From a virus: a stretch of 64,000 nt of DNA. Of the stretch, positions 56,642-62,675 are shown in pieces. Location of the stretch: the IMG/VR virus record IMGVR_UViG_3300046370_000202. One strand, 5' to 3'. Under the pieces are notes generated by a model. The model had not been told where the DNA came from, did not search any database, and worked only from the letters and a program-made list of their open reading frames with translations. The position numbers and the translations under genes are program-made. Each line of letters begins with the position of its first letter. The first letter of the stretch is position 1.

Positions 56642-57862
56642 TTATCTACGAGCTGAATCCCAACCCTTTAATATATCGGACGAAAAGTTGTTGTATGAAA
56701 ATTCCATACGGTCAACCAATTTCACCGCGTCACCACCAAGTGTATCAATTGCAACATATCCTTCTTCGCCAGTCACTTTGTAACCATTAGAAGTTTTCAC
56801 GAAAGTATCAATCGATTTAAGTTTGTCCAAACTATTTATAAGTTTTAATTTCACTAATACGATCAATTTTTGCAACTCAAACATTTTTACTAGGTTTGCC
56901 TTGTTTGTGGCAGAGAAAAACTCCATCTCATCCTTCATTTTGGCAATCCAATTGTCCTTACCTCGCTGAGATTTCTTACTTGCAATCTCTTTTGCGTAGT
57001 AGGCTTGTCTGTTACTTATCAGTCCGTTAACGTGCTTTCTTGAGTCCGGAAGTACTGTACCCGCACGAACGAATGAGTTATTGTATGTCTCGATTGACTG
57101 TGCGAACTCGGGGTTGTCCGCGACAGTTTTCAAGGTAGTTGCAGAAGTCTGTTTGAATAGACGACCTATCTGTGTTAGTAAATCATTGACCGATTTGGTT
57201 TCGCGTTCAGTCATTGTAGCTTTAGTCGCATCTTTTAACATCGCATCTTGTGACCATACGTTGCGTGACTTTCGCAACTTACTGACATCAACACCGTAGT
57301 CTGCTTTCATGTTCTCAAAAGATGTACCCGTGTATGTTGTGTGCCATACGATACCGATCTTAGCGGCACGTACTTCTTTCGCTTGATCATAGGGAACTGC
57401 GTATGCGATTGTGTTTGGGTGAAATACGCTGTACTTCTGACCGTCAATGGTCTTAGTAGTGACATCTCCATCACCGAATAAAAAGTCGCCTTGAATGACG
57501 CCTTTGATGCCTAGAGCTGGTAAATACTTGAGCGCGTCTTTCAACTTAGAGTTTAGATCGCCCGACGTATCAGCATCAATGTCTGCGTCGGTCTTATAGA
57601 CCTTTGGGTTCTTGTTGAAGATGCCTTTCTTAGCAACGAAGAACTCGCCGTCTGAAGGATCGGTACCACAGAAGATCGCAGGCGCACCGTCCCACTTTAC
57701 AGAGATGCGACCTTTTGATGTGCCAGATAACATATCGCGTAGTCCACGCAAGGCATTGATTGCCTGACGCGTCCCGTCAACTCCACCGTACAGGACCTTG
57801 TCCTCGATGTGAGTCATATGCGTATTCTTTTGTTCTGTGATAAAGTTACTGAAGTTTTCCAT
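56642..57862 (-). CDS. Conserved T4-like protein with nucleotidyltransferase/ligase-like motifs
   Basis: KNTHMTHIED...VKWDGAPA...QGDFLF...FHPNTIAY...EGYV...VKLVDRMEFS; start refined to MENFSNFITE. Confidence 0.7.
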   Translation of the reverse strand: MENFSNFITEQKNTHMTHIEDKVLYGGVDGTRQAINALRGLRDMLSGTSKGRISVKWDGAPAIFCGTDPSDGEFFVAKKGIFNKNPKVYKTDADIDADTSGDLNSKLKDALKYLPALGIKGVIQGDFLFGDGDVTTKTIDGQKYSVFHPNTIAYAVPYDQAKEVRAAKIGIVWHTTYTGTSFENMKADYGVDVSKLRKSRNVWSQDAMLKDATKATMTERETKSVNDLLTQIGRLFKQTSATTLKTVADNPEFAQSIETYNNSFVRAGTVLPDSRKHVNGLISNRQAYYAKEIASKKSQRGKDNWIAKMKDEMEFFSATNKANLVKMFELQKLIVLVKLKLINSLDKLKSIDTFVKTSNGYKVTGEEGYVAIDTLGGDAVKLVDRMEFSYNNFSSDILKGWDSARR

Positions 57863-57863
57863 A

Positions 57864-59267
57864 TTAGTATAGTTTCGCAAATGGTCCAAATAGATCGCCC
57901 TTTTTCTGACCAAGATATGAGATATCAGATAAAAGGTCGCTTACTTTATTAATGTCACGTATCGTAAATATCTCATTAAGCAAATCCAACTGCATCAACT
58001 TACTATTCGCAACAGCTCTTTCATTGTCGTTCTTCGAACTGTCAAACACTGTTCGCATGTTATCAATAAATTCTTTTTCTGACTTGATATTCATTTCAAC
58101 ACGACCTGTACGATTAAGTGATTTAAATCGCCCGACGTGAACGTCCTGTTCTTTCAAAAAATCTTCTAGACTTTGGGGATATTTTCTCCAAGATCTCCAC
58201 CGATCATAATTTTTGACACCATAAGATCTAAGTGCCGCAGAGACCATGTCTAGTGGCGCTTTACCTAGTCTCGCGGCCCGCGCACTAACATCGGTACCTT
58301 CAATCTTTAAGTTGTTGAATCCACGCGAGTTCTGTCTTATCTGAAAGTTGATGGTTACCTTGCTCGACGCAATCTGAAAAGACGATTCTGTGTTAACAAA
58401 AGAAGTGCCTGACAGAGACAGATTTAATTTTGATTCTTGAAAATCAAACCGATATTCATCGCCGTCAAATAGGTCTTCTCCATCAAAGTTTACCAGTTCC
58501 CATCTTGCAGTTTTACCGGACATCTTCTTCAAAGAAATGCCTACGACTTGACGACTGTTGAACATATCTTGAAGAATTGCATTAAACTCTGGAAGCGATG
58601 TTGAGTTATCCCTAATTTTTGAGTCTAGGTCTCGTTTCGCCTTTGATAAATCTGCGACCAACCAAATGTCAGCCGGGTTCCACGTATCTTTTTGTGTTAT
58701 GCCATACAACTCTTTACAAGTGTCTGTGATGTAATCCATGAACCCGCCATCACGACTGTAGTGACCATACTGTGTATTGCCAACTTTCTGTTGTGTCAAC
58801 TTCTGTTGTTCAAAGAAAACATTCTCCCAGTATTCGTCCATGGCAGGATATTCTTTCAAGAGATCTTCACGATATAGTTTTAAAAACGTTTCTTTATTAG
58901 TATATCCATTTTTCTCAATACCTTTCTGAATCGCTAACAAACTGGCTCGTTCTTGCATCGCAGTGGTCTTACCGTCTGGTTTACCACTTTTTCCGCCCAT
59001 TCCACTAAACGGCGACTTGTCTATTTCGGTCCACTTATATCCATTGAATATAGGCGCATAGTTATTTCCAGACTTTGCCGAAACATTGACCTGAGTTATG
59101 TTTTGTTTCTCTACAGCAGACACAAACTTTTTGACTAAGTCTGTCTGATTGATTACTTGAGAAACATTGCCCTTAAACTTAACAGGTTCACCATTAGTGA
59201 TTTTGTCAGCAAGCATGTTTAAGTATGGCTTAGAAAACTTGAAGTCCCCGCCAGCAAGCATTGCCAT
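57864..59267 (-). CDS. Putative PD-(D/E)XK endonuclease
   Basis: TAMQE...KDTWNPADIWLV...VGISLKK; late promoter at about 59311. Confidence 0.55.
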   Translation of the reverse strand: MAMLAGGDFKFSKPYLNMLADKITNGEPVKFKGNVSQVINQTDLVKKFVSAVEKQNITQVNVSAKSGNNYAPIFNGYKWTEIDKSPFSGMGGKSGKPDGKTTAMQERASLLAIQKGIEKNGYTNKETFLKLYREDLLKEYPAMDEYWENVFFEQQKLTQQKVGNTQYGHYSRDGGFMDYITDTCKELYGITQKDTWNPADIWLVADLSKAKRDLDSKIRDNSTSLPEFNAILQDMFNSRQVVGISLKKMSGKTARWELVNFDGEDLFDGDEYRFDFQESKLNLSLSGTSFVNTESSFQIASSKVTINFQIRQNSRGFNNLKIEGTDVSARAARLGKAPLDMVSAALRSYGVKNYDRWRSWRKYPQSLEDFLKEQDVHVGRFKSLNRTGRVEMNIKSEKEFIDNMRTVFDSSKNDNERAVANSKLMQLDLLNEIFTIRDINKVSDLLSDISYLGQKKGDLFGPFAKLY

Positions 59268-59313: not shown

Positions 59314-59991
59314 TTATATGTCAAGGGCATTTCCAGAATTTTCTGCATTATATTGCGCAATTGTGTCGCGGAGAGGACGAACCCAATTGTCTCTATGTTC
59401 AATAAAGACTTGTGGTTCGTGGTTGTCTACAGAAATGATGGTGACTAGTTGGGTGATGGGCCTTCCCGTCCGTTCTTCCCACATAATAGCGTAGGCGGAC
59501 TCTTGCATGAAATAGTTTTTGACCCATTCAAGTCGTTTTGGTTTAAGTGAGGTTTTAAAGTCGATGATAGACAACTTACCATCAAACTCAGCAACACAGT
59601 CCACACGACCAGCCACACCCAGATGATTGGAGTAGAGAGGTGCTTCCTGTGCAAATACTCTGCCAATGCGGCTATCGAGAATGGGCTGAAGATCAAGGAA
59701 ACTACTAATAATATCTGGAGTATATCCATTTTTGAAACTCTCTTCATTGTTGATGTATTTCTCAACCACTTCATGGACTGCAGTACCGCGTGTAGATGCG
59801 CGATGAGAAATGCGGTTTGCTTCTTCGTTACCGACTTTTTTACGCCACTTTGCGATAGACTCGCGTGAAAGTATAGAGAGTACGGTGGTTATAGAGGGAA
59901 GGTTGATACCTTCGGGCGTTTTATACTCACGGCGACCATTGCGGTTCTCCGTTTTCATTTCAGTCAATTCAATAGGTACATGTTCAAACAT
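59314..59991 (-). CDS. PD-(D/E)XK exonuclease
   Basis: PSITTVL...RGTAVHEVVE...EAPLYS...AGRVDCVAEFDGKLSIIDFKTS...YFMQESAYA. Confidence 0.88.
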   Translation of the reverse strand: MFEHVPIELTEMKTENRNGRREYKTPEGINLPSITTVLSILSRESIAKWRKKVGNEEANRISHRASTRGTAVHEVVEKYINNEESFKNGYTPDIISSFLDLQPILDSRIGRVFAQEAPLYSNHLGVAGRVDCVAEFDGKLSIIDFKTSLKPKRLEWVKNYFMQESAYAIMWEERTGRPITQLVTIISVDNHEPQVFIEHRDNWVRPLRDTIAQYNAENSGNALDI

Positions 59992-60149: not shown

Positions 60150-60312
60150 GATCCCCACAAGTACGGCGCCTTTTAGACATTTTGTTTGGTGAAACTTGAT
60201 ATAACTCTGCTGGCATTTTTACATGCACGATTTGAGAGATCTGCAGATCTTATCAGTGCGCCCGTGCGCAAAATTCACTCTATGTCAGACTAACCGTACT
60301 CTGTGGGGGAAC
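60150..60312 (-). ncRNA. Candidate ncRNA of about 165 nt directly 3' of tRNA-Ala
   Basis: Ends pair (CCCCACAGAGTACGG / CCGTACTTGTGGGG) with nested helices inside. Confidence 0.5.
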
Positions 60313-60388
60313 TGGTGGAGCTAGAGGGAGTCGAACCCACGACCTCTTGAATGCAAATCAAGCGCTCTCCCAACTGAGCTATAGCCCC
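60313..60388 (-). tRNA. tRNA-Ala (TGC)
   Basis: GGGGCTATAGCTCAG...TTTGCAT...TTCGA...TAGCTCCACCA; G3:U70 pair; late promoter at 60399-60406. Confidence 0.95.
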
Positions 60389-60418
60389 CTTATCTGTCTA
60401 TTTATACCACATTAATAT

Positions 60419-60486
60419 TGGAGCGGAGCGTAGGAACTTCCCCTACCTCAGCGAGGGGTACTCGCCGACTCAATACTGAACTCCGC
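60419..60486 (-). ncRNA. Non-canonical tRNA-Gly-like RNA (68 nt, CCA end)
   Basis: 7-bp acceptor stem GCGGAGT/GCTCCGC, U73, CCA; minimal D arm; T arm with GGAAGTT loop. Confidence 0.7.
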
Positions 60487-61988: not shown

Positions 61989-62675
61989 TTAACTATTTTT
62001 GACGCGTTTGATCGCTTGCTTCTCTACTTCAATCCAACGCTTGGCCTTCGCGCCGTGTGGTTTGTCCGTAAACTTCTTCGCATCACGATATGCAGTTAAC
62101 GTTTCTTTCTCGTAGTTCTTACCTTCAGAGTTATCAACTACCAAGAAGTTCTCTTTACCAAACATGCGTTGGAACTTGCCGACGTTGCGCTGAACTGCTT
62201 TCCAATACTCAGTAACACCTTTCGCGCCTAGAGTACGCGCACGTTTTGCATCACGGTTGATAGCAGTATCAAGGTCTGTGTTTACGAAAATCATCGCAAC
62301 ATCGTAACCTAATTCTTTAACCTTCTTTGCTTGCGCGGCAATCTTGTCTGGATCTTTACCAGTACCGTCTACGACAAGACCAAGGCGTCCCTTCAGATAA
62401 CGTTCCTCTTTTTTGCCAGTAATCTTCTTTGCCTTACCACGAAGTTCTTGACCCTTCGGAGAGAAGATGTTGTCTGGAGTCATCTCCATATCAACCTTCT
62501 TCATGGCAGCTTCAAACGCGTCATCGGAGTTGACAACTTTGTAACCCATAGAGGTCAAACCAGTTTTGCCGACGATGAATGACTTACCAGAGCCTGGCCC
62601 ACCCGCAAGGAAGATCGCCTTGAAGATTGCTGGATCGTTGACACCTTCGTCTAGGAATGTTTTAAAAGATTTCAT
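61989..62675 (-). CDS. P-loop kinase (zeta toxin/AAA_33-like)
   Basis: KAIFLAGGPGSGKS...VNSD...VVDGTG...R.R; MKSFKTFLDE leader. Confidence 0.8.
   Translation of the reverse strand: MKSFKTFLDEGVNDPAIFKAIFLAGGPGSGKSFIVGKTGLTSMGYKVVNSDDAFEAAMKKVDMEMTPDNIFSPKGQELRGKAKKITGKKEERYLKGRLGLVVDGTGKDPDKIAAQAKKVKELGYDVAMIFVNTDLDTAINRDAKRARTLGAKGVTEYWKAVQRNVGKFQRMFGKENFLVVDNSEGKNYEKETLTAYRDAKKFTDKPHGAKAKRWIEVEKQAIKRVKNS

Follow-up and report, generated by a model that had tools for sequence, protein, structure and literature searches.

The window analysed here, a stretch of 64,000 nt, comes from an IMG/VR virus record of 160,050 bp with an estimated completeness of 93%. On its minus strand lies a 68-nt segment that resembles a tRNA-Gly reduced almost to its stems, and this raises the question of whether the segment is a gene at all and, if so, what a phage would do with such an RNA. 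The reading that we favour, and to which we would give close to but short of an even chance, is that it is one of two paralogous miniaturised glycine-identity tRNA genes of an uncultured T4-like marine myovirus, acting as a glycine carrier off the ribosome with a DruA-like GNAT protein as its user. The nearest GenBank relative of the window phage is Phage C48C1, filed under Kyanoviridae. No psbA was found in the 93%-complete genome, and the cyanophage label was dropped for the window phage on this ground. ARAGORN identifies 11 tRNAs in the genome, and none of them is a canonical tRNA-Gly. The positions of the features are collected in Table 1.

Table 1. Positions of the features discussed, in window coordinates except for the two entries on record G000, the genome of the window phage.
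Feature	Position	Strand	Evidence
Mini tRNA-Gly-like gene, copy 1, 68 nt	60419..60486	minus	sequence, fold, covariance model, covariation
Acceptor stem 5' strand, G1 C2 G3 G4 A5 G6 U7 (partner 60423-60429)	60480..60486	minus	
Vestigial D arm, 3-bp stem and 4-nt loop, lacking G18 G19	60470..60479	minus	
Anticodon-type arm, 6-bp stem and 7-nt loop GUACCCC	60449..60467	minus	
Anticodon-equivalent triplet ACC	60457..60459	minus	18-variant alignment
T arm, 5-bp stem and 7-nt loop GGAAGUU, lacking TPsiC	60430..60446	minus	
Discriminator U73 and encoded CCA	60419..60422	minus	invariant in 18/18 variants
Di-haem cytochrome c peroxidase/MauG-like gene, 476 aa	60493..61923	minus	PF03150, E = 6.7e-24
Sigma-70-like promoter of the peroxidase gene	61978-61949	minus	
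T4-type late-promoter-like box TATAAATA, between copy 1 and tRNA-Ala	60399..60406	minus	
Canonical tRNA-Ala(UGC), next gene of the array	60313..60388	minus	ARAGORN and Rfam, 69 bits
P-loop kinase, DUF6267 protein and PD-(D/E)XK nuclease genes, in this order	61989-62675, 56642-57913, 59314-59991	minus	
Mini tRNA-Gly-like gene, copy 2 (outside the window)	G000:C1:134824-134892		
DruA/DUF4338-family ORF, 378 aa	G000:C1:148249-149382		PF14236, 38 bits against a cut-off of 27

The first-pass annotation had parsed the segment as a cloverleaf. The minus strand reads exactly so, and the minimum-free-energy fold is this same cloverleaf (-30.2 kcal/mol, z = -2.9, with 3 of 200 shuffles equally good). 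As read from the sequence, the acceptor stem has seven pairs, the seventh being U-G, and a two-base linker separates the anticodon-type stem from the 5-bp T stem. The D loop reads GUAU, against GUUAU in the majority of the family described below, and the T loop reads GGAAGUU, which bears out the reported loss of the D-loop GG and TTC motifs. Positions 32 and 38 of the anticodon-type loop (G-C) are also paired, leaving a loop of 5 nt. The acceptor end is thus that of a tRNA, with six firm pairs and a weak seventh, U73 and the 3' CCA. The elbow lacks the features of an elongator tRNA, namely G18 G19 in the D loop and T54-Psi55-C56 in the T loop, and the anticodon loop has U33 but departs from an elongator by C37 and by the Watson-Crick pair G32-C38. 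Standard tRNA finders do miss the element, as had been anticipated. ARAGORN did not call it in any of three modes (bacterial, metazoan-mitochondrial, 80% threshold), and the Rfam tRNA model RF00005, with a gathering score of 29 bits, did not match it even at E <= 10; five neighbouring tRNAs score 59-71 bits with the same model. A covariance model built from relatives gives copy 1 a score of 82-83 bits (E ~1e-20).

The stop codon of the peroxidase/MauG-like gene lies 6 nt upstream of copy 1, and no terminator-like site was found between the two. The peroxidase gene itself sits within the tRNA array and is kept in 33 viral contigs. The TATAAATA box follows 12 nt past the end of copy 1, and in relatives it is kept directly before tRNA-Ala. 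About 160 nt just past tRNA-Ala (window 60152-60310, minus strand) are conserved in relatives L002-L011, L018 and L023. They contain no ORF of 60 aa or more, exhibit an AGATCT-type palindrome and a GCGC-rich hairpin, and match nothing in Rfam at E <= 10; this region may form a further structured RNA within the tRNA transcript. The tRNA array is flanked by genes for a P-loop kinase of the zeta-toxin/AAA_33 type, a DUF6267 protein and a PD-(D/E)XK nuclease. At the matching positions C48C1, from which the mini tRNA is absent, carries an annotated exonuclease and several hypothetical genes. These flanking genes therefore appear to be independent of the mini tRNA.

C48C1 is without the mini element owing to a clean 84-nt indel. 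Among 31 relatives of the peroxidase gene, the slot that follows it is variable, being empty or occupied by a small ORF or by a canonical tRNA-Gly(GCC); in one of these relatives it holds the mini element and then, 4 nt on, the canonical tRNA-Gly(GCC). Scanning IMG/VR and metagenomes with sequence patterns yielded 18 distinct full-length variants of 68-70 nt. They are found after an ORF, between two tRNAs with spacers of 3-6 nt, before an intrinsic terminator, or in the leader of gene 47, and they form two context classes, of which class 2 is the 5' leader of a gene 47 (SbcD-like) homologue. The element is flanked as a tRNA would be, starting a few nucleotides after a tRNA or stop codon and ending 3-4 nt before a directly following tRNA.

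In the alignment of the 18 variants 93.9% of the cells are paired, against 46-51% when the partners are slid. Ten of the 22 base pairs change on both sides, and none of 500 shuffles reached the observed covariation score. A covariance-model search of related contigs for compensatory changes had been put forward as a check, and the homologues do show such covariation. The changes fall in three helices. In the acceptor stem they affect pairs 5 and 6, where the second class has G-C/A-U instead of A-U/G-C; in the D hairpin they affect two pairs of three (8-18, U-A to C-G, and 10-16, A-U to C-G), and in the long hairpin five of seven. At 32-38, 16 variants have G-C and the other 2 have A-U. As aligned by eye, the two bases that flank the long stem also pair with each other (U-A in class 1, A-U in class 2). 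In 13 of the 18 variants the seventh acceptor pair is a mismatch. G1-C72 is present in 17 of 18, and C2-G71, G3-C70 and G4-C69 never vary, to be read with the caveat that the search patterns were taken from the T stem and, in part, from the acceptor stem, so that their invariance is partly ascertainment; for this reason the invariance of the T stem says little. The D-loop letters G, U, A and U are invariant although the D stem covaries, the loop measuring 4 or 5 nt across the family. The T loop has the consensus KGAARNY, its positions 54 and 58 being U/A in 12 variants and G/G in 6. Such invariant loops hint at a tertiary contact.

The element is kept in phages whose neighbouring proteins are just 55-73% identical. 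A blastn search of GenBank phages (50,697 records) with two family members gave no match at E <= 1, and the exact T-arm plus acceptor pattern had 0 matches in the genomes of 185,579 prokaryote species. The mini element is a conserved, phage-specific, cloverleaf-shaped RNA gene, placed as a tRNA gene is, in tRNA arrays or mRNA leaders, with its CCA encoded. That it is a real RNA gene under selection is almost certain. One variant (L102:6390-6459, minus strand, and L248) has C72 replaced by A, which breaks G1-C72, and the neighbouring canonical tRNA-Gly is also missing from that array; it may be an inactivated copy. We also considered an origin by in-situ decay of the neighbouring tRNA-Gly(GCC). 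This was rejected, as the two, compared by eye, have little in common apart from G1-G4, the bases paired with these, and the UCCA end, and as the mini element and the canonical gene coexist in tandem.

A second copy is present in the genome of the window phage. It scores 67-86 bits with the covariance models, the lower value (67 bits, E = 1e-15) being obtained with the model from the first 12 variants. It starts about 27 nt past a perfect sigma-70 promoter (TTGACA-N17-TATAAT, 12 of 12 matches), and its end is 14 nt upstream of the gene 47 start codon. Among the 80 closest gene 47 loci, 10 have such a class 2 mini element in this place, and the other 70 have only the promoter and a short leader.

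Which tRNA-reading factors could recognise the element? In bacteria the glycine identity set has been defined experimentally as U73, G1-C72, C2-G71 (and G3-C70), C35 and C36 (PMC9976931). As the first-pass annotation had stated, the whole set is present in copy 1; it is complete in the entire family as well, except for the single variant with G1-A72, and U73, C35 and C36 are invariant in 18/18 variants. The emphasis that the same annotation placed on U33 holds for copy 1 and not for the family, 3 variants of which have A or G instead of U at position 33. At position 34 there is A in 13 variants, G in 3 and U in 2, and variants that are almost the same elsewhere can differ here. Position 37 carries C in 14 of the 18 and A otherwise. 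This pattern points to a selection that keeps what GlyRS reads and drops what the ribosome reads, and so suggests a glycine acceptor that is no ordinary decoder. Judged by these sequence marks, the mini tRNA is probably a glycine acceptor, and the balance leans, somewhat less firmly, against its being an ordinary decoder.

The opposite possibility is that the element is an odd but working elongator tRNA-Gly, which replaces the canonical phage tRNA-Gly(GCC) found in the slot of the relatives. The triplet is NCC in all 18 variants, and the window phage has no other tRNA-Gly, while relatives hold a canonical one in this same slot. U54/A58 is retained in 12 of the 18 variants. The reduced D arm and the 6-bp anticodon stem resemble those of functional metazoan mitochondrial tRNAs; an extended anticodon stem together with a reduced D arm is found in working mitochondrial tRNAs as well. 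A decoder is nevertheless hard to reconcile with a purine at position 33 in 3 variants, C at position 37 in 14 of 18, a 32-38 pair that is Watson-Crick and covaries, the missing G18G19 and TPsiC, and a position 34 that alternates between A, G and U among near-identical variants. Moreover, several phages have the mini element 4 nt from a canonical tRNA-Gly(GCC), so that in those phages it is no replacement. We consider an elongator unlikely, and return to the reading of the mini tRNA as a glycine carrier outside translation.

Such a carrier would need an enzyme that uses it. Searches of the 160-kb phage genome with the models of FemAB (PF02388), Acetyltransf_6, Leu/Phe-transferase and the MprF C-domain gave no match. 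The candidate is the DruA/DUF4338-family protein listed in Table 1, whose gene adjoins neither copy of the mini tRNA (about 13 kb and 21 kb away). The search for homologues of this protein found 6663. The DruA/DUF4338 family is also found in Druantia defence systems. Among GenBank phages, the gene is present in Synechococcus myoviruses and in Pelagibacter phage HTVC008M, and C48C1 does not have it. It belongs to the replication module, following the DNA polymerase gene in HTVC008M and directly preceding the gp62 clamp-loader gene in S-SSM7 and S-SCSM2R, and it is annotated as mom in one GenBank phage record. An AlphaFold model of the protein, made with 43 sequences, has a pLDDT of 92.5, and its Foldseek matches are all GNATs, though weak. 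In a wide VIA-align search with this model the top row is Mu Mom (8bv8; Z 9.8, rmsd 3.8, 171 of 202 residues aligned), a rank that is nominal given that many ordinary GNATs lie within 1 Z unit and FemA reaches 8.8. At the sequence level, BLASTP of the protein against Mu Mom and hhalign of its 43-sequence profile found nothing, phmmer and a profile search against PDB sequences found nothing, and the Mom Pfam model PF25680 has no match in the phage genome at E <= 10. Mom moves glycine from Gly-tRNAGly onto N6 of adenine in double-stranded DNA; the paper describing this reaction is silent on DruA and on phage-encoded tRNAs (PMC13219725).

The distribution of the two genes was compared in the related records that cover both loci (n=8). 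Mini tRNA and DruA-like gene are both present in five (G000, G001, G006, G019 and G020) and both absent in three (G002, G003 and C48C1). The DruA-like proteins of the five double-positive records are 55-100% identical to that of the window phage. Judged by gene 47, G001 and G003 (88% and 87%) stand at about the same distance from the window phage, yet are opposite in both traits. Fragments with just one of the two genes end before reaching the other locus. The sample is small and its eight records are related phages rather than independent events, so the co-occurrence is suggestive and short of proof. The reverse does not hold: S-SSM7, S-SCSM2R, G033 and others combine a DruA-like gene with a canonical tRNA-Gly or with none. 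As many DruA-positive phages lack the mini family, the DruA-like enzyme can do without it. From this analysis the mini tRNA emerges as a possible donor for the DruA-like enzyme, a pairing we hold tentatively and with rather less confidence than the glycine-acceptor assignment.

Other reduced or altered tRNA-Gly genes were encountered in the course of these scans. DruA-positive phage contigs contain mini tRNA-Gly-like genes that look unrelated to the present family, in L460-L462 (63 nt), L467/L475 (two tandem 69-nt genes) and L477 (68 nt), all with GCGG...CCGCUCCA ends and CC in the middle loop. Further mini tRNA-Gly-like classes of IMG/VR are those of L141, L181 and L207 (67 nt) and of L145, L221 and L165; in the L141 group the T stem itself shows compensatory changes. 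Among phage tRNA-Gly genes of 72-74 nt, many have the anticodon ACC (IMG/VR loci L138, L160, L232, L241 and others), which is unusual for bacteria, and T loops of the kind GUGCGAU in place of TTC.

The glycine-carrier reading can be laid out as a sequence of steps. Copy 1 would be transcribed together with the peroxidase gene. Copy 2, in the leader of the SbcD-like gene 47 homologue, would be an early product of its own sigma-70 promoter. The mini tRNA would then be excised by RNase P and trimmed at its 3' end, and the host GlyRS would presumably charge it through U73, G1-C72, C2-G71, G3-C70, C35 and C36. The product is predicted to be a poor substrate for EF-Tu and the ribosome, because its loop is closed by the 32-38 pair with U33 unfixed and C or A at 37, and because its D and T loops are without G18G19 and TPsiC; it would therefore constitute a private pool of Gly-RNA. 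In the last and least certain step, the 378-aa DruA-like GNAT-fold enzyme might glycylate a target from this pool, as Mu Mom does with Gly-tRNAGly. The most likely target would be phage DNA, because the DruA-like gene stands in the replication module of related phages. More generally, and more speculatively than the pairing itself, marine T4-like phages, including relatives of pelagiphages and cyanophages, may run a two-part system in which a DruA/DUF4338 GNAT takes glycine from tRNA as Mom does, and to which some of them add a private, early, ribosome-unfit mini tRNA-Gly.

A tRNA-Gly mimic could instead serve the phage as a decoy or sponge. It would then draw off a host defence factor that recognises the acceptor end of tRNA-Gly, for example the toxSAS FaRel2 or a GNAT toxin of the TacT type, or it would titrate GlyRS. 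FaRel2 depends on G1-C72, C2-G71, G4-C69 and purine5-pyrimidine68 (bioRxiv 10.1101/2024.07.05.602228), and TacT on U73 and G71 (PMC9976931). All of these determinants are kept here, with G1-C72 in 17 of 18 variants, and the early promoter of copy 2 would suit such a role. Readers confined to the acceptor do not explain the invariant C35 and C36, however, no toxin of this kind is known for the host, and a decoy leaves the co-occurrence with the DruA-like gene unaccounted for. It seems to us a slightly weaker candidate than the elongator. Less probable again is a signal acting in cis, a tRNA-shaped RNase P site for processing or stability that would set where the upstream mRNA ends or where that of gene 47 begins. 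The element is always found either immediately behind an ORF or tRNA or within a 5' leader, and in one context an intrinsic terminator follows it; this placement agrees with such a role. But a signal of this kind needs the acceptor and T arms only, whereas C35, C36 and U73 are invariant and the anticodon-type stem is maintained by compensatory change; besides, 70 of the 80 gene 47 loci manage without the element. Finally, a functionless, decaying tRNA-Gly pseudogene, for which the sporadic distribution and the C72 to A change in one variant might speak, is strongly disfavoured and for practical purposes excluded by the two diverged paralogues in one genome, the invariant loop letters, the compensatory changes in three helices and the retention across phages with neighbour proteins of 55-73% identity; the earlier claim that this is not simple decay is thus upheld by 18 variants, by 10 of 22 pairs with compensatory changes and by the second copy.

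No published description of this mini tRNA-Gly family was found in the literature. Bacterial and phage tRNAs are held to be uniformly cloverleaf-folded and L-shaped (PMC11551756). A conserved glycine-identity RNA of 68-70 nt with a vestigial D arm would be an exception to this uniform shape, and one that is invisible to annotation pipelines. It offers a minimal natural substrate with which to probe what GlyRS, RNase P and EF-Tu need from the tRNA body. Should the carrier reading be true, the mini tRNA would be the smallest glycine acceptor known from the bacterial world and the first tRNA encoded by a phage to be reserved for a reaction outside translation; it would provide a link to the recently described tRNA-dependent DNA hypermodification by Mom, and a testable function for the DruA/DUF4338 family. 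If it is charged and used off the ribosome, the idea of non-proteogenic tRNA-Gly, which comes from staphylococci, would extend to viruses.

Several known systems resemble the mini tRNA in part. The t-elements of plant mitochondria and the stable RNAs of the T4 tRNA cluster are likewise tRNA-shaped transcript modules cut by tRNA-processing enzymes. They have no conserved amino-acid identity set in the anticodon-type loop, whereas C35 and C36 are invariant in the mini tRNA. Metazoan mitochondrial tRNAs that lack the D arm, such as tRNA-Ser(AGY), share the reduced D arm, the lengthened anticodon stem and the escape from standard finders; unlike what we propose here, they are decoders working with adapted mitochondrial factors, and they have a 7-nt anticodon loop with U33. 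Another is the 74-nt tRNA-Gly(ACC) of HTVC008M (KC465899.1: 91140-91213; L367:1501-1574), a T4-like marine phage with two DruA-like genes. Its D loop is without GG and its T loop without TTC. In contrast to the mini tRNA, it has the full cloverleaf size and an ordinary 7-nt loop (U33, A37), is called by ARAGORN, and scores just 28.6 bits with the mini-tRNA model.

On the side of the enzyme, phage Mu provides the nearest parallel. Mom is a GNAT-fold enzyme that takes glycine from charged tRNA-Gly, and the window phage also has a GNAT-fold protein. Mu relies on the tRNA-Gly of its host and has no tRNA of its own, whereas here the tRNA is phage-encoded. The 378-aa protein, a candidate transferase, differs from Mom in belonging to Pfam DruA (PF14236), with no match to the Mom-family model.

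On the side of the RNA, a non-proteogenic tRNA-Gly serving a GNAT-fold transferase is already known from staphylococci: the NP1-NP3 tRNAs of S. aureus are donors for FmhB, FemA and FemB (PMC7826273). The analogy with them, drawn in the first-pass annotation, stands as a functional likeness and not as one of lineage or of partner, there being no Fem-type transferase here and no staphylococcal descent. NP1-NP3 belong to a cellular lineage known only in staphylococci and have the full cloverleaf size. The mini tRNA is phage-encoded and 68-70 nt long; its D hairpin has 3 bp, its anticodon-type stem has 6 bp and its loop is closed, and no Fem-family gene was found in the genome. What the two have in common is a glycine-identity tRNA that lacks the D-loop GG and the T-loop TPsiC. 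In the staphylococcal case such tRNAs are poor partners of the ribosome and of EF-Tu, and their glycine goes to a GNAT-fold transferase that acts outside translation; this is the role that we tentatively propose for the mini tRNA.
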